A stretch of DNA of 64,000 nucleotides from Mycoplasmatota bacterium (GTDB lineage Bacteria > Bacillota_I > Bacilli_A > RF39 > UBA660), in NCBI GenBank assembly GCA_022771205.1, contig JALFCF010000003.1:133866-197865 (forward strand), read 5' to 3'. Each line of letters begins with the position of its first letter. Position 1 is the stretch's first letter. The position numbers and the translations under genes are program-made. The notes under the pieces were generated by a model. That model did no database searches. It saw only the letters and a program-made list of their open reading frames with translations, and was not told where the DNA came from. Shown piece after piece: positions 22,631 to 37,275 of this stretch.

Positions 22631-22704
22631 GCCGATATAGTTTAGTGGTAAAACAGATCCTTGGTAAGGATCAGCGGACAGTTCAATTCTGTCTTTCGGC
22701 ACCA
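22631..22704 (+). tRNA. tRNA-Thr(GGT); integration target
   Basis: Acceptor GCCGATA/TTTCGGC, anticodon stem GATCC/GGATC with loop TTGGTAA, encoded CCA. Confidence 0.9.
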
Positions 22705-22727
22705 TAGGGAAATCCGCTCGAACTTTT
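22699..22727 (+). repeat. att junction copy 1 (GCACCA-N6-AATCY-N4-GAACTTTT)
   Basis: Same spacing at 31188 and 37136; GAAC always starts 21 nt after the G of GCACCA. Confidence 0.75.
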
Positions 22728-22751
22728 TATAAGTTGCGAGAATAAATAGAC

Positions 22752-22781
22752 AATCAATTCTAAATTAGGATTGATTTTTTT
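22752..22781 (+). terminator. Terminator after tRNA/att
   Basis: AATCAATTC...GGATTGATT + T-run; homologous copy at 37189-37218. Confidence 0.75.
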
Positions 22782-22813
22782 CTTGTTTAGAAAAAAGTCT
22801 TTCAAAGAAAGGA

Positions 22814-23095
22814 TTGATTAAAATGGTAAATGTTATCAAACAAGAAGTTAGAATGGAAGAATCATTAAGAAAGAGATTAGAATTTATTTGTGAGTTTTGT
22901 AGAGTTAAACCAATTATTATTAATGGTAATTTAAGAACGATAGTTAAAACAAATCTTACTTATCTAGAACCACATAGAATAATAATTAATGATATAACAT
23001 TTCTAGCTTTTAATTATTCTAATGAAATATTTATTGAAAACTTAAATAATAAGATTAAATTATCTGAATTAGAAAAATATTTAAAACATAACTAA
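22814..23095 (+). CDS. Conserved small CxxC protein of element 1
   Basis: Clear paralog of 31302..31577 (EFIC.FC, P.IINGN.R, EPHRIII, ITFLAFNYSNEIFIENL). Confidence 0.8.
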   Translation: MIKMVNVIKQEVRMEESLRKRLEFICEFCRVKPIIINGNLRTIVKTNLTYLEPHRIIINDITFLAFNYSNEIFIENLNNKIKLSELEKYLKHN

Positions 23096-23201
23096 TATCT
23101 ATACCCTAATTAGGTAATTGACAAAATGAACTTTTAAGTATATTATATAAAACCAATAAATGACAAGCAGTATCCGTCTTTTATTAAAAAGGAGGTACAC
23201 T

Positions 23202-23293
23202 ATGGTCAAAAACACAATTAATAAAAAATATAATATTAAATTAAGTGGAGTCAAAGGTATTAGTTTGAACTAGTATTTTTGACTCCCTTTTTT
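23202..23293 (+). promoter_or_regulatory. Leader uORF (23 aa) overlapping a terminator upstream of the recombinase
   Basis: AAGGAGGT RBS, MVKNTINKKYNIKLSGVKGISLN*; stem GGAGTCAAA/TTTGACTCC + T-run. Confidence 0.55.
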
Positions 23294-23316
23294 GTAGGAA
23301 AAGGAGTTGAAGATTA

Positions 23317-33715: not shown

Positions 33716-34026
33716 CACGTTTTGTTGAACTTCGTTCAATGAAAGTGGGAAAAGTTTGTTACTAAAATTATGAGAACTTTTACTTAACATTGTTTGTAAA
33801 AGTACGAATGATTTTTGGGAGATAAAATAATAAGTGGTACTTGTTATTTTATCAGAAGTCTTGTGTAGCTTTATTTCATTACGAAGTTTTGAAATATTAC
33901 GAAATAAGACAGGTGGATTCTAAGGTTGCCTAAACCTTAGCCCCCAGATTTTGATGCTTGCGTCAAAATCTATAGGGGGTTAGAGATTTTGACAAAGCAA
34001 AATTAACCCTACTATAAATAGTAGGA
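33716..34026 (+). other. Conserved structured non-coding region (candidate oriT/ssDNA origin), element 2
   Basis: Homologous hairpin series to 25180-25397. Confidence 0.65.
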
Positions 34027-34055
34027 CTCTTGTTTACAAAAGGGGAATATAAAAT

Positions 34056-35408
34056 ATGGATGATAAGGAAGAATTATCTTATTCATTACACTTGAGTAAC
34101 GATAAAAACAAGTCAAAAAAAGCAAGAAGAACAGCAAAAACGAATGACACTAACACTACTTCATTTAATAATAATGCAATACAAAATCATCAGCAATTAT
34201 CAAAAGTCGATAAACATAACTTACGAAAATATGATGAAGAACAAGAATTAATTTGCACGATTAAAGGTACTTCATCTATTGTTGAAGATACCAAAAATTT
34301 GTATTTAGGATTGTTTGAAGATGCTAGAATTAAATACAACGAAAAGCAAACTAGAAATGATAGAAAGATAGAAAACTATTTTAATCATATCTCAAATGAT
34401 AACAAAAGAGATCTTGCTTGTGAGATTATTATTGAACTTGGAGATATGGACTTTTGGGCAGATAAAGATGATAAATTTAAGCATAAAATGATAGAAGTTT
34501 TTAAAGAACAAATATTAGATTTGGAAGAAGTTGTACCTAACTTTAAAATAGCAAATGCCACCATACATTTTGATGAATCTTCTCCACATCTACATATTGT
34601 TGGTGTTCCTTTTAAAGATGGAATGAAAAATGGTATGGAAAAACAAGTTGGTAAATCTGATGTATTTAATAAAATAAGTTTAAAAGAAATTCAAGACAAA
34701 ATGAGAGTATATTGTATTAATTCATTCAATAGAATTTATAACCTTAATTATATTCTTAAAGTAAAAGAAGAAGGTAGAAATGTTGATATTAATGTTGCAA
34801 ATATGAATGAGTACAAAAAGTTTAAACGAGAACAGGAAAAATATAAAAAACAACTTAAAGAATTGAATAGTAAAGCAGAGGAATTACAAAATAAATCTAA
34901 TGAGATTAATGATATTATTGACAATTTAAAACCTACATTAATGAATAAAAATAACTACTCTATTTCAAATGATGATATTAATAAAATCAAAAAATATATA
35001 GAGCAAACCAATGATACTACTTCCAATTTAAGAGATGCGAATGACATAAATATAATCTTAAAAAAATATGAAGATGATTTAAGAGAACACTCTAATGAAG
35101 TTAGAAATTTGAAAAAGAAAATTCAAACTCGTGATGATAGAATTGAAGAATTAGAATATGACTTGAATGATGCCAATGAAACTATTGATGAATTAGAAGA
35201 TAAAGTATCAGAATTGCAAAAAATAGTTGGTTACTTTAAAGAACTATGGAAAAAGTTTATTAGATTCTTACAAGATAAGTTCTTCTCGAATGATAAATAT
35301 GATGACTTCATAAATGATTTATATGATGAAGATATACTTGATGAAAATGATATTGATATTATTCAAAATAATAAAAATATCGATAAAAATGATGATTTTG
35401 AAAGGTAA
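34056..35408 (+). CDS. MobV/Pre family relaxase
   Basis: HNLR and HFDESSPHLH motifs, coiled coil, acidic tail ending FER. Confidence 0.88.
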   Translation: MDDKEELSYSLHLSNDKNKSKKARRTAKTNDTNTTSFNNNAIQNHQQLSKVDKHNLRKYDEEQELICTIKGTSSIVEDTKNLYLGLFEDARIKYNEKQTRNDRKIENYFNHISNDNKRDLACEIIIELGDMDFWADKDDKFKHKMIEVFKEQILDLEEVVPNFKIANATIHFDESSPHLHIVGVPFKDGMKNGMEKQVGKSDVFNKISLKEIQDKMRVYCINSFNRIYNLNYILKVKEEGRNVDINVANMNEYKKFKREQEKYKKQLKELNSKAEELQNKSNEINDIIDNLKPTLMNKNNYSISNDDINKIKKYIEQTNDTTSNLRDANDINIILKKYEDDLREHSNEVRNLKKKIQTRDDRIEELEYDLNDANETIDELEDKVSELQKIVGYFKELWKKFIRFLQDKFFSNDKYDDFINDLYDEDILDENDIDIIQNNKNIDKNDDFER

Positions 35409-35481
35409 GATGTTAGAAAACATTGCATAAAATCACATTTTATGATAGTATAAACACCAATTTCAAAGGGGAAATGCTAGT

Positions 35482-36288
35482 ATGGAAGAAATAAAATCAA
35501 AAGAAATAGATTTATCTACTCTGCAAAAATTACAAAGTCAGGGAACGCAAAGTACAATTTATACAGATGGAGATATATGTTATAAATTTTTGGATGGTCT
35601 TTATCCAAATGAAAAAAGGGATTTGCACAGAAAGTTTCTTGATATGGCTGGAATAAAAATTGATAATGTTTTATTACCCCAAGATTTAATTATTGAGGAT
35701 GGTAGATTAAAAGGCTATACTATGAGATATTTTGCAAACTCTATGCCCTTATCAGATAAATTTTTAAAAAGATATTTTAATTGTAATGAATTACTTATCT
35801 ATGTAGAAAAAGCAAGTACAATATTGAGGAATATTCATAGTAATGGAATAGTTTGTCAAGATTTAAGTTTTGAAAATATATTAGTTAATGATAAAGGAAA
35901 TGTTACATTTTGTGATATAGATGGTTGTACTTATAAAGGACATACTTCACCATTTTTCTCTGTATTATTTAAAGAGTTCTTAGTTGATTATAGAAAGTCT
36001 AAAATTTCTACAAAAGAAGATGTAGATAAAGTATCAATGATTTTATCTTTTTATCTTACACTGTATGGAGAAGTATTGCAAAGAATAACAAAAAAACAAT
36101 ATCATATTTTATCTGATAATATTCATACATTAGAAAATTTGCGAGAAATTGCTAATATATTGGTTGATAAAAAATGTCCTATACAAGATATACCATATTT
36201 AGATGAAGTTATAGATTTAACTGATGATTATGAAATAGATAGAAAAAAGGTTTTAACTATAAAGCAAAAAATGTTTAGAAAATTTTAA
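35482..36288 (+). CDS. Protein kinase-like cargo
   Basis: GTQSTIY Gly-loop, K in CYKF, IH..GIVCQDLSFENILV catalytic loop, CDID in place of DFG. Confidence 0.75.
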   Translation: MEEIKSKEIDLSTLQKLQSQGTQSTIYTDGDICYKFLDGLYPNEKRDLHRKFLDMAGIKIDNVLLPQDLIIEDGRLKGYTMRYFANSMPLSDKFLKRYFNCNELLIYVEKASTILRNIHSNGIVCQDLSFENILVNDKGNVTFCDIDGCTYKGHTSPFFSVLFKEFLVDYRKSKISTKEDVDKVSMILSFYLTLYGEVLQRITKKQYHILSDNIHTLENLREIANILVDKKCPIQDIPYLDEVIDLTDDYEIDRKKVLTIKQKMFRKF

Positions 36289-36293
36289 AGGAG

Positions 36294-37007
36294 TTGAAAA
36301 TAACGTTTGGAATTAATGAAATATTAGATAAAGTTATTTCTAAAAAAGAATTAACTGAAGAAGAAAAATTTAAAATATTACGTTCTAAAAGAATTGATAC
36401 AAAGGTTGTAGAATATTTAATGAATAAACTAAATAATTTACATATTGAGGTGTTAGGTGAATATGAAGGTTCTTTGTTTGAATTAATGCCAGCAGGAAAA
36501 CTTGAAGGATGGTGTTGGCAAACAACAGAATCAGCAATAGTATTTTTAAACGATGATGATTATATTGAAAGAGGAAATCTAAGGTTTGATGAAAGAACAC
36601 CAGAATATTATCATTCATGGATATGTTTTAAGTTTGATGGTACAGAATATGTTTTGGATCCATGTTTAAGTTTTTTATGCAAAAAGAGTGATTATTCAAA
36701 AATATTTGAAATTAATGTAAAAGGAATAGTAAGTGCTAAAGCAGTAAGAGAAGAACTAATTAGACAAGTTAATGCACCTAAAGAGGAAGATAATTCAGAA
36801 GCTCATCAAGCATTTCAATCGTTTATGAAAAGTTTTATGGGAGAATCTTATGATAATTATATGGAAAGTAAAAAAGAGGAAGTTACAGTTCACGGACCAG
36901 AAGATGTAAATACTCCATTATATAGAAATGGTGCTGGTTATAAAACAGAAATTGATAATGGAAAAATCAAAAAATTAACAGTTCATTATTACTACACAGA
37001 TTGTTAG
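36294..37007 (+). CDS. Transglutaminase/papain-like Cys-His-Asp protein
   Basis: GWCW ... HSWI ... YVLDP spacing fits a transglutaminase-like triad. Confidence 0.55.
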   Translation: MKITFGINEILDKVISKKELTEEEKFKILRSKRIDTKVVEYLMNKLNNLHIEVLGEYEGSLFELMPAGKLEGWCWQTTESAIVFLNDDDYIERGNLRFDERTPEYYHSWICFKFDGTEYVLDPCLSFLCKKSDYSKIFEINVKGIVSAKAVREELIRQVNAPKEEDNSEAHQAFQSFMKSFMGESYDNYMESKKEEVTVHGPEDVNTPLYRNGAGYKTEIDNGKIKKLTVHYYYTDC

Positions 37008-37135
37008 CACCAAAAAGACCTAAAAAAGTATAGATTTATTTTTTAGAATAGTTTATAATTATATTAAGAAATTGATACAAATATTGTATTGATTACTTAC
37101 TTTAGAGAAAAAAGTTTGAAATAACTTTCTTACTC

Positions 37136-37275
37136 GCACCATTAGGGAATCCAGATGAACTTTTCCGGAAGGGAAGCACTTTAAATAGAAATCAATCCGT
37201 AAAAAGGATTGATTTTTTGTTGATATGAAAGGAAATGGTGAAATGATAAACGTTATACAAAAAGAGATACATATG
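37136..37275 (+). mobile_element. Stub of a third element (att copy 3, terminator, 5' end of the small ORF)
   Basis: GCACCAttagggAATCCagatGAACTTTT; terminator 37189-37218; MINVIQKEIHM at 37243 resembles MVNVIKQEVRM, then similarity stops. Confidence 0.7.

Follow-up and report, generated by a model that had tools for sequence, protein, structure and literature searches.

Two putative integrative mobilizable elements and the stub of a third behind a tRNA-Thr gene of a Mycoplasmatota bacterium: a probable accretion array of a tRNA-targeting large serine recombinase family

The window, the whole stretch of DNA that was analysed, comprises 64,000 nt of contig JALFCF010000003.1 (assembly GCA_022771205.1, positions 133,866 to 197,865, forward strand) from a Mycoplasmatota bacterium. 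Directly behind its tRNA-Thr(ggt) gene, which comes second in a tRNA pair after Arg(ccg), two intact elements of 8,489 bp (unit 1) and 5,948 bp (unit 2) and the stub of a third are arranged head-to-tail, with the following features in window coordinates.

22631..22704, +, tRNA-Thr(ggt) (ARAGORN; Rfam 62.8 bits)
22699..22727, +, junction J1, attL of unit 1: tRNA end GCACCA, then the left-end (P′) half-site
22753..22782, +, hairpin and U-run of unit 1 (dG -10.0 kcal/mol, z -2.3)
22823..23095, +, small conserved ORF 1, 90 aa, no known family
23118..23296, +, promoter-like site (23118-23146) and leader
23317..25170, +, LSR1, large serine recombinase, 617 aa
25225..25417, +, conserved hairpin region upstream of mob, candidate oriT of unit 1
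25418..26590, +, MobV-type relaxase 1 (Mob1), 390 aa (PF01076, Mob_Pre, 2.9e-13; HxDE..PHLH stretch present)
26799..31028, +, unit 1 cargo, two genes
31100..31193, +, right end of unit 1, conserved; contains the P arm and GCACCA
31188..31216, +, junction J2: unit 1 right end joined to unit 2 left end (P1-core-P2′)
31239..31274, +, hairpin and U-run of unit 2 (dG -13.6 kcal/mol, z -6.0)
31302..31577, +, small conserved ORF 2, 91 aa, 63% identical to small ORF 1
31645..31803, +, promoter-like site (31645-31672), then leader with terminator hairpin (31753-31797), preceding LSR2
31832..33685, +, LSR2, 72% identical to LSR1 (Resolvase, Recombinase and Zn_ribbon_recom)
33862..34055, +, conserved hairpin region, candidate oriT of unit 2
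34056..35408, +, MobV-type relaxase 2 (Mob2), 450 aa (PF01076, 1.4e-14), 49% identical to Mob1
35482..37007, +, unit 2 cargo, two genes
37054..37141, +, right end of unit 2, conserved; contains the P arm
37136..37298, +, junction J3 and unit 3 stub: left-end half-site, hairpin (37187-37217; dG -13.3 kcal/mol, z -5.1) and small-ORF start (ATG 37243)
37532..39823, +, distal to the stub: 233-aa ORF, 63-aa ORF, WYL-HTH regulator and Ham1 NTPase

The junctions share the motif GCACCA-N6-AATCY-N4-GAACTTTT, which is matched three times in the window (22699, 31188 and 37136), always on the plus strand and without mismatches, and was not matched in 100 dinucleotide-preserving shuffles of the window, zero matches being expected by chance. 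The first copy overlaps the final 6 nt, GCACCA, of the tRNA-Thr(ggt) gene. Every junction is followed by a hairpin with a U-run; these hairpins have AT-rich stems and were not flagged by a consensus terminator scan, which needs at least three G-C pairs, and that of unit 1 would stand in for the native terminator of the tRNA operon. Downstream of each hairpin lies a small ORF of roughly 90 aa, of which about the first 8-18 codons are left at J3. Small ORF 1 has no match in Pfam, NCBIfam or PADLOC, and its AF2 model (pLDDT 89.9) gave no convincing fold match; the protein is a candidate accessory or directionality factor. The leader of unit 1 contains a strong terminator hairpin (23247-23286) directly before the LSR1 start codon; this hairpin is kept in 14 relatives, and 6 of its 14 pairs show compensatory changes. 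LSR1 carries the Resolvase (PF00239, 2e-33), Recombinase (PF07508, 7e-16) and Zn_ribbon_recom (PF13408, 2e-5) domains, and the RVSTEDQ catalytic-serine region is invariant in the LSR alignment A2. The best NCBIfam matches of LSR1 are CcrB and CcrC, with scores (125.8 and 104.2) far under the family cut-offs of 900. LSR2 is taken to start at ATG 31832, which aligns with M1 of LSR1, the mechanical ORF beginning at TTG 31778.

The candidate oriT hairpins comprise 29 predicted pairs, 13 of which show compensatory changes among the 12 elements compared. Unit 1 carries as cargo a 643-aa PADLOC candidate defence protein (26799-28730; PDC-S56, E 7e-224) and a 751-aa repeat protein with a sigma-70-like C-terminus (28773-31028), and unit 2 a 268-aa kinase-like protein (weak PD-T4-6 and Pkinase matches) and a 237-aa protein without family; the genes of the two units are unrelated. 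The right end of unit 1 is 91-98% identical in five relatives with different cargo (L029, L030, L031, L033 and L036), and that of unit 2 is 94-99% identical in L104, L043 and L092. Neither a tyrosine recombinase nor a conjugation gene turned up in domain searches of units 1 and 2. The original prediction had described three junctions of fixed spacing, each followed by a terminator and the same small ORF, and two full units with an LSR, a structured region, Mob and unrelated cargo beside a third reduced to a stub, all of which is borne out by the motif counts and the domain and identity comparisons, with the start of the ORF alone present at J3.

The stub was assessed partly by comparison with L018, and in the relative G012 the same left-end type comes before a complete small ORF and LSR. 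The genes at 37532..39823 are possible relic cargo: G017, G018 and G012 have homologues downstream of the same hotspot, and a WYL and Ham1 pair is found within the junction-bounded element of L066, while no P arm or right-end junction was found after 39823.

Relatives of the LSRs number at least 594 in species-representative genomes, and insertion sites were surveyed in the best 80 of these loci. In 58 of the 80 the left end begins directly after the CCA of a tRNA or tmRNA gene, with the LSR unit 514-1177 bp downstream of the CCA; a further 11 follow the right end of another element, in 4 the contig breaks off at the junction, and in 7 the upstream sequence is too short for assessment. None of the assessable loci (73/73) is an exception to placement at a CCA or a right end, the targets across the 80 loci comprise 14 tRNA species and tmRNA, and the small ORF lies upstream of the LSR in 71. 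The integrase is a member of a widespread gut-bacterial family, which appears to insert at the extreme end of almost any tRNA gene. The proposal of a tRNA-targeting LSR family with a very short core and repeated integration is supported comparatively by these loci and by the arrays of elements that recur in other genomes. The survey of homolog insertion sites, a check suggested with the original prediction, upheld targeting of tRNA 3′ ends and revealed a family larger and less site-specific than proposed; tRNA-Thr as the target is contradicted by the variety of RNA genes used and by near-identical LSRs at different tRNAs.

Backbones 93-95% identical in nucleotide sequence to 22700-26750 occur in genomes of other species at Thr-ggt, Thr-cgt, Leu-caa, Leu-gag, Arg-cct and tmRNA with differing cargo, which is evidently modular. 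The 20-mer at the right end of unit 1 (31174-31193) was found in 63 metagenome contigs with 40 different downstream sequences, but a search of the same contigs for the proposed attP circles came out negative, as in none of the 63 is the right end of unit 1 linked to the left end of the same unit; neither an excised circle nor an empty-site product was observed, and the activity of the elements is thus presumed. The natural right flanks of the insertion sites are mutually unrelated and mostly terminators. Two different family members, in G042 and G072, abut the same chromosomal flank at the identical base, between CACCA and AAATTGTAA, while the flank in G073 departs from it at the first bases; for the two flanks tried, no empty-site relative with the same flank was found. 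An intact mob gene is missing in 2 of 15 fully delimited relatives, some relatives have a split mob, and in L097 a truncated LSR lies beside an IS256-type (Mutator-family) transposase gene.

Fourteen other genomes of the genus carry the same tRNA-Thr in a syntenic setting, and in 13 of the 15 genomes it is followed by an element-type left end. The remaining two, G015 and G016, have none of the recognised left-end types directly after the tRNA-Thr CCA, where G015 has a terminator hairpin. An intact LSR is found at the site in only three of the 15 (G000, G012 and G008), and most of the genus sites consequently hold relics. In G008 a unit 2-like element directly follows the tRNA-Thr, and in the genome of the window itself only 2 of the 37 CCA-encoding RNA genes are followed by an element-type left end.

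The right ends share with the tRNA ends only (G)C-N73-CCA. While N71 differs between right end and tRNA, for example at Arg-cct and tmRNA, the right-end N73 equals that of the tRNA in arrays (T/T in L045, C/C in L079, A/A elsewhere), and core and target thus covary. All 11 LSR clusters at 90% identity or above with at least two known targets use one discriminator class, 9 of them inserted at two or more different RNA genes, and the class can switch from one LSR to another at 80-90% identity. In 26 elements the inferred attP has its peak of dyad symmetry at C72-N73 (0.585, against at most 0.37 for 10 other centres). These sequence comparisons make C72-N73, the final base of the acceptor stem together with the discriminator, the most likely crossover dinucleotide, which at J1 would be C72-A73 (22700-22701). 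The outer motifs in the two arms of attP lie 1-4 nt out of register, which makes the symmetry imperfect, and we infer the crossover position from it with some latitude. The elements target a generic feature, the 3′ end of many tRNA genes and of tmRNA, with the discriminator base dividing the targets into classes, and the 3′ part of tRNA-Thr (T arm, acceptor strand, C72-A73 and CCA) would serve as the left arm of attB plus the core.

It is probable, at roughly 0.8, that the region represents an accretion array of integrative mobilizable elements (IMEs) inserted by LSRs at tRNA and tmRNA 3′ ends. Each unit would consist of a left-end half-site starting with CCA, the terminator hairpin, the small ORF, a promoter with an attenuator-like leader, the LSR, the candidate oriT, the MobV relaxase, variable cargo and a conserved right end of ~90 bp. 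The LSR would integrate the element, in its circular form, at the very 3′ terminus of a CCA-encoding tRNA or tmRNA gene of the chromosome, the T arm and acceptor strand acting as the left half of attB. Since the element would bring a new CCA and a terminator, the tRNA would stay intact, and as attL would regenerate the left-side needs and the right half of the targets is unconserved, insertion next to the tRNA could be repeated. Each new insertion there would push the older units outwards, which would make unit 1 the youngest and unit 2 older, with unit 3 decayed to a stub, and transfer between cells would proceed via MobV and oriT with a helper conjugative system. Such tRNA-adjacent stacking requires attP × attL-type recombination. 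Bxb1, phiC31 and other canonical serine integrases are not known to carry out this reaction without a directionality factor, and given this behaviour the requirement counts against the stacking model.

Specificity of the elements for the tRNA-Thr sequence itself, in the manner of classical one-tRNA integrases, would agree with the occupancy of the site across the genus (13/15) and with the scarcity of left ends at other RNA genes of the same genome (2/37). This is nevertheless highly improbable, as LSRs at least 90% identical to LSR1 are found at Thr-ggt, Thr-cgt, Leu-caa and Leu-gag and those equally close to LSR2 at Thr-ggt, Leu-gag and Phe, within an overall range of 14 tRNA species and tmRNA, and chimeric MAG contigs are unlikely to rescue the idea over 58 independent loci. 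It is more plausible, though still doubtful, that the same family with the same lifestyle recombines inside the CCA (C74-C75 or C75-A76), the match at N73 reflecting protein recognition or selection. CCA is the sole stretch invariant across all junctions, and sequence comparison by itself cannot locate the crossover within C72-A76; however, attP symmetry at the 26 sites is 0.25-0.37 for the CCA centres with a sharp peak at C72-N73, the right-end N73 always equals the target N73, and class switches at 80-90% LSR identity are more easily explained by a one-base change of the attP core.

That the array arose by tandem duplication, or was imported as a composite assembled beforehand, instead of growing by successive integrations, is unlikely. 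Composite elements are described as able to move as one piece in an IME review (PMC5704250), and unit 2 and the stub could have come together, but the units are not duplicates, given the divergence of the LSRs and Mob proteins (72% and 49% identity) and the unrelated cargo, and each unit type is found alone or with other partners elsewhere, including the unit 2-like element right after tRNA-Thr in G008 and unit 1-like elements adjoining several other left-end types. That the elements are now immobile relics, ancient insertions with domesticated or decaying genes, is quite improbable as well: the lack of a circle junction in the 63 contigs, the many genus sites holding stubs only and the truncated LSR or split mob of some relatives would fit, whereas LSR1, LSR2, Mob1 and Mob2 are full-length with conserved motifs, the backbone is 93-95% identical across species and different tRNAs, and one right-end 20-mer has 40 distinct contexts.

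For the preferred reading, successive LSR-driven insertion of IMEs, several known systems offer parallels. The suggested likeness to an integron holds as a picture only, as recombinase, relaxase and ends come with each single unit, and neither a shared integrase nor an attC-type cassette is present; closer analogues, as far as published descriptions go, are SCC composite islands and Dehalococcoides ssrA islands. SCC and SCCmec elements (CcrAB, CcrC) at the rlmH 3′ end are LSR-driven, do not inactivate the gene, restore a site that can be used again and build up into tandem composites beside decayed elements. The present array is similarly LSR-driven and stacked in tandem at a conserved-gene 3′ end left functional, but it uses an RNA gene end instead of rlmH and one recombinase instead of a CcrA/CcrB pair, and has a relaxase. 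TnpX-type elements insert at many loosely defined sites, whereas the present LSRs use one defined position of tRNA genes.

The predicted Tn4451-type layout stood as to the arrangement of LSR and MobV: like Tn4451/Tn4453 (TnpX LSR and TnpZ Mob/Pre) as reviewed in PMC5704250, the units are small IMEs (6-9 kb) that encode a single LSR and a MobV/Pre-type relaxase preceded by an oriT-like site, and their direct repeats are very short. The resemblance is confined to this layout: a domain search found no DUF4368 in LSR1 and LSR2, a domain given as typical of the Tn4451/TnpX-like multi-targeting LSR clade by Durrant et al. 2022 (PMC10083194). That survey describes multi-targeting LSR clusters at 90% identity with targets sharing a motif, and the present LSR clusters likewise have several different targets at 90% identity; its targets are, however, defined by protein-coding gene clusters, unlike the RNA genes here, and 'tRNA' does not occur in its main text, although members of the present family may be in its database unnoticed.

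In Dehalococcoides (DsiB/DsiA; McMurdie et al. 2011, PMC3146451), multiple tandem islands downstream of tmRNA are described as separated by 3′-end repeats, with a CcrB-like LSR adjoining attL and diverse cargo, and the authors propose a mobilizable, non-conjugative lifestyle. An LSR near attL and tandem units behind a tRNA-like gene are shared with the present array, but those islands are reported at ssrA only, their direct repeat measures 20 bp, their crossover is placed in the T-loop, and their reverse strand encodes further module genes along with a second, small serine recombinase, in contrast to the 14 tRNA species and tmRNA, 5-6 bp core (C72-A76), single LSR and MobV relaxase found here. 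Insertion at tRNAs with newer units pushing older ones outwards, building islands, is likewise described for tycheposons (bioRxiv 10.1101/2020.12.28.424599), which along with classical tRNA islands (Islander) resemble the present family in their tRNA/tmRNA sites and often niche- or defence-related cargo. According to these sources their integrases are tyrosine recombinases with a single tRNA target each, and the partial-tRNA repeats are ~40 nt long, whereas the present family has a serine recombinase, a 5-6 bp core and several tRNAs per LSR lineage.

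The tandem array adjoining the tRNA-Thr(ggt) gene was accurately described in the original prediction, as its junction motifs, hairpins, small ORFs, large serine recombinase (LSR), Mob and unrelated cargo were all found as stated. The motif GCACCA-N6-AATCY-N4-GAACTTTT is present in three copies in the window, all on the forward strand, and was matched in none of 100 shuffles; the first GCACCA is the tRNA's 3′ end, and the gene comes second in an Arg(ccg)-Thr(ggt) pair. Each junction is followed by an AT-rich hairpin and U-run (-10.0, -13.6 and -13.3 kcal/mol at J1, J2 and J3, respectively), none of which was flagged by a consensus terminator scan requiring at least three G-C pairs, and then by a small ORF of ~90 aa, of which copies 1 and 2 are 63% identical and only the first codons are present at J3. 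An Rfam search over 22000-38000 returned two tRNAs and no other match. Units 1 and 2 share the order of a promoter-like site, a terminator-hairpin leader, the LSR, conserved hairpins, the MobV relaxase and unrelated cargo, and the features of the region are as follows.

22631-22704, forward strand: tRNA-Thr(ggt)
22699, 31188 and 37136, forward strand: junctions J1, J2 and J3, opening unit 1, unit 2 and the stub unit 3
23118-23296 (unit 1) and 31645-31803 (unit 2): promoter-like site and leader, with a terminator hairpin abutting the ribosome-binding site of the LSR gene
Unit 1 cargo: 643-aa protein, PADLOC candidate PDC-S56 (E 7e-224)
28773-31028, unit 1 cargo: 751-aa protein with repeats and a sigma-70-like C-terminus
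Unit 2 cargo: 268-aa weakly kinase-like protein and 237-aa protein without a family
Within 37532-39823: possible relic cargo past the stub, a WYL-HTH regulator and a Ham1 NTPase (pair 38656-39823)
40495-49077: genes for an AMP-binding enzyme, an acyltransferase, a CoA-enzyme activase and a two-component system

In the 14 elements compared, 6 of the 14 pairs of the strong leader terminator hairpin show compensatory changes, and the hairpin looks like an attenuator that would gate integrase expression; in unit 1, a 23-codon ORF of the leader extends into the 5′ arm of the hairpin. Compensatory changes are likewise seen in 13 of 29 pairs of the hairpin region between the LSR and mob genes (12 elements). 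The 751-aa cargo protein of unit 1 has internal repeats of ~55 aa that match short HTH-like profiles, and its C-terminus resembles region 4 of sigma-70.

The recombinases of units 1 and 2, LSR1 and LSR2, are 72% identical and have the domain composition of large serine recombinases, namely a catalytic PF00239 resolvase domain (E 2e-33 and 1.1e-33, respectively), a PF07508 recombinase domain (58.7 and 62.6 bits) and a PF13408 zinc ribbon, which scores exactly at the cut-off in LSR1 (25.3 bits) and under it in LSR2 (20.3 bits). The stretch Y-I-R-V-S-T-E-D-Q, the region of the nucleophilic serine, is invariant in four LSRs, and the C-terminal 150 aa are modeled with low confidence (pLDDT 61.8). 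An attP x attB reaction via a 2-bp staggered cut would be in line with the precise junctions and the dyad symmetry of the inferred attP about a dinucleotide, which support it indirectly. The two relaxases, Mob1 and Mob2, are 49% identical and match the Mob_Pre profile PF01076 with 50.5 and 54.9 bits (cut-off 25.5), whereas the NCBIfam MobV equivalog score of 34.1 against a cut-off of 100 places them as divergent members of the MobV group. The histidine-rich catalytic motif of MobV proteins, HxDE...PHxH, aligns with IHYDETSPHLHIVG in Mob1 and IHFDESSPHLHIVG in Mob2. With an LSR and a Mob in each, and with conserved hairpins as an oriT candidate only, units 1 and 2 qualify as IMEs, and they would be expected to excise as circles and be mobilized by a helper; no T4SS or coupling-protein families were found among their ORFs. 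In PLSDB, no close relative of LSR1 was found, the matches listed being ~24-32% identical and none of 3775 covering 80% of the protein.

Relatives of the recombinase are found at no fewer than 594 loci in a scan of one genome per prokaryotic species, and their hosts are labeled mostly as uncultured gut Bacilli, 'Clostridium sp. CAG:417' and 'Coprobacillus sp. CAG:605', with a single complete genome, that of Massilimicrobiota timonensis. Record and run labels point to an abundant presence of the family in gut Bacilli with small genomes, from pigs, humans, rabbits and ruminants, and the sequencing runs of carriers are pig-gut, manure and feces metagenomes; most of the hosts are metagenome-assembled genomes and all of the evidence is comparative. 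Among the best 80 of these at least 594 loci, the LSR lies 514-1177 bp downstream of a tRNA or tmRNA gene in 58, with the left end of the element right after the CCA, and 11 sit behind the right end of another element, that is, as the second or a later unit of an array. The junction falls at a contig edge in four, and seven have too little upstream sequence, which leaves 73 assessable loci with no exception to the placement at a tRNA end or a right end. The genes targeted are tmRNA (9), Gly-tcc (8), His (7), Thr-cgt (6), Leu-caa (6), Thr-ggt (5), Cys (4), Leu-tag (4), Leu-gag (3), Arg-cct (2), Gly-gcc, Arg-ccg, Phe and Thr-tgt. Since the 58 insertions are spread over many tRNAs and tmRNA, the family is not specific for tRNA-Thr, and the earlier view of an LSR array at a tRNA end, while essentially right, was too narrow in tying it to tRNA-Thr.

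Within the genus, the same tRNA-Thr in the same upstream context was located in 15 genomes, including that of the window (1.36 Mb in 8 contigs), and in 13 of them an element-type left end of one of several kinds follows directly after the CCA. In the other two, a terminator hairpin comes directly after the CCA (G015) or none of the recognized left-end types is present (G016), and only these two sites look empty. One relative (G008) has a unit 2-like element directly after the tRNA, with an LSR 89% identical, and another (G005) has a decayed LSR beside a 90% homologue of the 751-aa cargo gene at the same tRNA (N-terminus, L017:2338-2706). In genome G012, a J3-type left end is followed by a complete small ORF and an LSR, which identifies unit 3 as a remnant of that type. 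The distance from the tRNA-Thr to a syntenic MBL-fold gene (49149 in the window) is 26 kb here versus 9-18 kb in three relatives, so that the variable region (22705-49100) reaches past the 22699-37275 originally proposed. The genes at 40495-49077 were not found in the compared stretches of the three relatives. Past the stub, the pair of WYL and Ham1 genes has a counterpart inside a junction-bounded element of a relative (L066:16381-18567, WYL gene at 81% nucleotide identity, then a 343-aa ORF, then Ham1), which suggests that the relic of the array may reach ~39870; no right-end junction was found after 39823. Elsewhere in the window's own genome (G000), a tRNA-Gly ending in gcTCCA has behind it a left-end half-site, a hairpin and the beginning of a small ORF (MIKFTTQE...), at which point the contig ends (C1:107314-107520); the assembly was probably broken here by another element of the family. 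A Mob homologue in the same contig (C1:15627-16927), 58-64% identical to Mob1 and located ~3 kb from a cluster of 13 tRNAs, is split over two frames and is probably a pseudogene.

The units appear to be composed of a conserved backbone and exchangeable cargo. The 4-kb backbone of unit 1 (22700-26750, left end through mob) is 93-95% identical at the nucleotide level in seven other loci (given as L028-L034, L036), located at Thr-ggt, Thr-cgt, Leu-caa, Arg-cct, Leu-gag and tmRNA, and in these the homology ends just after mob. Identity rises again at the right end, where the final 60-94 bp of unit 1 are matched at 91-98% in L029, L030, L031, L033 and L036, and these conserved right ends delimit the unit 1-like elements at 7.2-10.8 kb with differing cargo; the right end of unit 2 is likewise conserved in three loci. 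A 20-mer from the right end of unit 1 was found in 63 metagenome contigs with 40 different downstream sequences, which are either other left-end types or apparently native flanks, and in no contig of the 63 did it join the left end of unit 1 as it would in a circle, which is weak evidence as assemblies rarely keep rare circles. Two different family members meet the same chromosomal flank at the identical base (G042, G072), G073 has the same right end as G072 with a flank that diverges over the first bases, and six single insertions end directly at apparent native terminators. For the clean insertions L065 and L036, no empty homologous site was recovered: the flank of L065, from M. timonensis, carries the right end of another element in one relative and is arranged differently in another, and at the flank of L036 a different family member occupies the same base in G072 and G073.

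Among 15 relatives delimited at both ends, 13 encode Mob_Pre, and their cargo includes a GNAT protein, NUDIX/MazG/Ham1-type NTP hydrolases, ABC transporters, a MazF-like domain, PDC-S46 and many proteins without a family. A recurring theme is nucleotide 'house-cleaning', with NUDIX proteins in 4 of the 15 and also MazG, Ham1, NTPase_I-T and histidine phosphatases (L058, L063, L066, L097). PADLOC matched a single protein, PDC-S46, among 19 cargo proteins of relatives and six proteins of the window (39877-49077), and a reading of the cargo as mostly defence is therefore not supported.

The exchange can be placed rather narrowly. The right ends of the elements (P arms) and the tRNA ends (B arms) have in common only the sequence (G)C-N73-CCA, where N73 is the discriminator base, with 5-6 bp shared at the junctions, and as N71 differs between the P arm and the tRNA, for example in Arg-cct and tmRNA, the exchange lies within C72-A76. 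C72, the last base of the acceptor stem, is present in all 58 targets, whereas N73 is A in 37, U in 13 and C in 7 (57 scored; best 80 of at least 594 loci). P arm and occupied tRNA agree in N73, with T/T in L045, C/C in L079 and A/A in the other arrays, and clean U73 and C73 insertions have right ends CTCCA and CCCCA. All 11 LSR clusters at ≥90% identity with two or more known targets keep a single N73 class, nine of them using at least two different RNA genes, and the classes mix at 80%. The base classes, the match between P arm and tRNA and the single class per cluster point to C72-N73, and dyad symmetry, scored on the inferred attP of the 26 elements whose two ends are defined, reaches 0.585 with this center versus at most 0.37 at ten other centers; we therefore lean towards this pair as the putative overlap dinucleotide. 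Apart from this, the B arm is conserved only in the T-loop GTTC, whose distance from the center is ~4 nt shorter than that of the GTT/AAC motifs in the P and P′ arms (P′ being the left-end half-site). In serine integrases, the zinc ribbon is reportedly bound ~5 bp nearer the center in attB than in attP, as seen in structural work on a Listeria integrase with attP, and by this analogy the offset fits.

The array is a set of LSR-driven mobilizable islands, and we consider it about 80% probable that such elements stack at tRNA ends by the general mechanism described next, as comparison of the sequences suggests. The circular element would carry attP as P-[C N73]-CCA-P′, and the LSR would pair it with the end of the tRNA gene, T arm/acceptor-[C72 N73]-CCA-flank. 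The exchange would leave the tRNA complete, with the CCA and the terminator now coming from the element, and would regenerate the left half and the core, so that newcomers insert beside the tRNA. As the natural right flanks are not conserved, an occupied site would stay a target, and insertion beside the tRNA fits the gradient in the window of two intact units, a stub and possible relic cargo beyond. The weak point of the stacking model is its dependence on recombination of the attP x attL type, a reaction that classical serine integrases generally avoid, and the small ORF may bear on this. In a bolder form, to which we give even odds, the LSR family reads universal features of tRNA genes as attB (the T-loop GTTC, then C72, then the encoded CCA), the overlap consists of C72 and the discriminator, the core base sets the class of tRNA and stacking is open-ended. 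One substitution in the attP core would then shift a lineage among A73 (Thr, Leu, Arg, Phe, tmRNA), U73 (Gly, Cys) and C73 (His), and the right half of attB would be essentially independent of sequence, which would keep occupied sites as targets and let any CCA-encoding tRNA operon end stack cargo. Such an enzyme would amount to a serine integrase of the 'safe harbour' kind, natural and nearly independent of the host.

Integrons consist of one IntI tyrosine recombinase, an attI site and promoterless attC cassettes; no tyrosine recombinase was found in the array region and each unit has a serine recombinase and ends of its own, and the proposed likeness to an integron is thus not borne out. Transfer RNA genes are classic landing sites of genomic islands, where textbook tyrosine integrases each recognize a long stretch of one tRNA. 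According to the available part of a 2017 review (PMC5704250), tRNA-integrating IMEs use tyrosine integrases, and serine-recombinase IMEs disrupt dispensable protein genes or, like Tn4451, have low specificity. The original prediction had likened the layout to Tn4451; DUF4368, reported for 63% of the Tn4451/TnpX-like multi-targeting clade in the consulted sections of Durrant et al. (PMC10083194), has no match in LSR1 or LSR2 at E ≤ 1e-3, and the two were not assigned to that clade. In the same sections, LSR targets are defined by protein-coding genes and the term 'tRNA' is absent from the main text. Membership in the SCC recombinases (CcrA/B/C) was also rejected, as the CcrB and CcrC scores of LSR1, 125.8 and 104.2 bits, are far under the NCBIfam cut-off of 900 and the target is a tRNA gene end and not the 3′ end of rlmH.

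The closest described system, judging from the accessible portion of its report (PMC3146451), is the ssrA islands of Dehalococcoides, which likewise have a CcrB-like LSR and lie in tandem. They differ in using tmRNA only, in a 20-bp repeat and in a second small recombinase, DsiA, whereas the units in the window share 5-6 bp at the junctions and encode only one resolvase-domain protein each, and these were accordingly not placed in the ssrA-GI module. Tycheposons also stack at tRNAs but, as far as the portion consulted goes, do so via tRNA-specific tyrosine recombinases (bioRxiv 10.1101/2020.12.28.424599). A search of the accessible literature found no description of serine-recombinase elements at the CCA end of many tRNAs.

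The family is one of serine integrases found at the last bases of many tRNAs and tmRNA, unlike the textbook tyrosine cases. If confirmed, the proposed recognition would be an LSR site built from a universal RNA-gene motif, and it would explain variable tRNA-adjacent islands in poorly studied bacteria and the shuffling among species of cargo such as the PDC-S56 and PDC-S46 defence candidates of PADLOC and numerous unknown genes. It would also provide a compact, factor-independent integrase for which most bacteria with CCA-encoding tRNA genes have a target, and a one-base exchange in attP might change the class of target.

The small ORF has no Pfam, NCBIfam or PADLOC family, its confident AF2 model gave no significant Foldseek match (best E 0.21), a VIA search reached a best Z-score of 6.0, inside the stated noise range of the tool, and a protein-atlas search returned 'hypothetical protein' clusters alone, with scores of 0.85 or less. 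The predicted complex with LSR residues 170-617 scored 0.00, which speaks neither way on binding. Three elements (L043, L090 and L099) have an additional ORF of 187-192 aa between small ORF and LSR, and L044 has one of 133 aa, stretching the distance from the tRNA to the LSR to ~1.1 kb. Two more left-end types, 'TAGGGAAATTAGTCGAACTAATCGAC' and 'GATTGATAGGAAACTCGAAC', were seen behind tRNA ends as well as behind the right ends of LSR elements (L006/L016, L008, L015/L020, L054:5870, L076:14947, L104:12153; L007/L017, L022, L030:16607, L031:20185), mostly without an intact LSR behind them in the stretches examined, and may be either relics or non-autonomous elements that ride on the same recombinase. 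In L066, with junctions at 9361 and 18648, a further family junction lies on the opposite strand at 6735, upstream of the tRNA. Four LSRs of the family were counted in genome G043, two of which lie at a distance of 5.7 kb (C116:13004-20515), and three in G044, and at L097:9992-12064 an LSR ORF is cut to 251 aa and followed by an IS256-type (Mutator-family) transposase gene.
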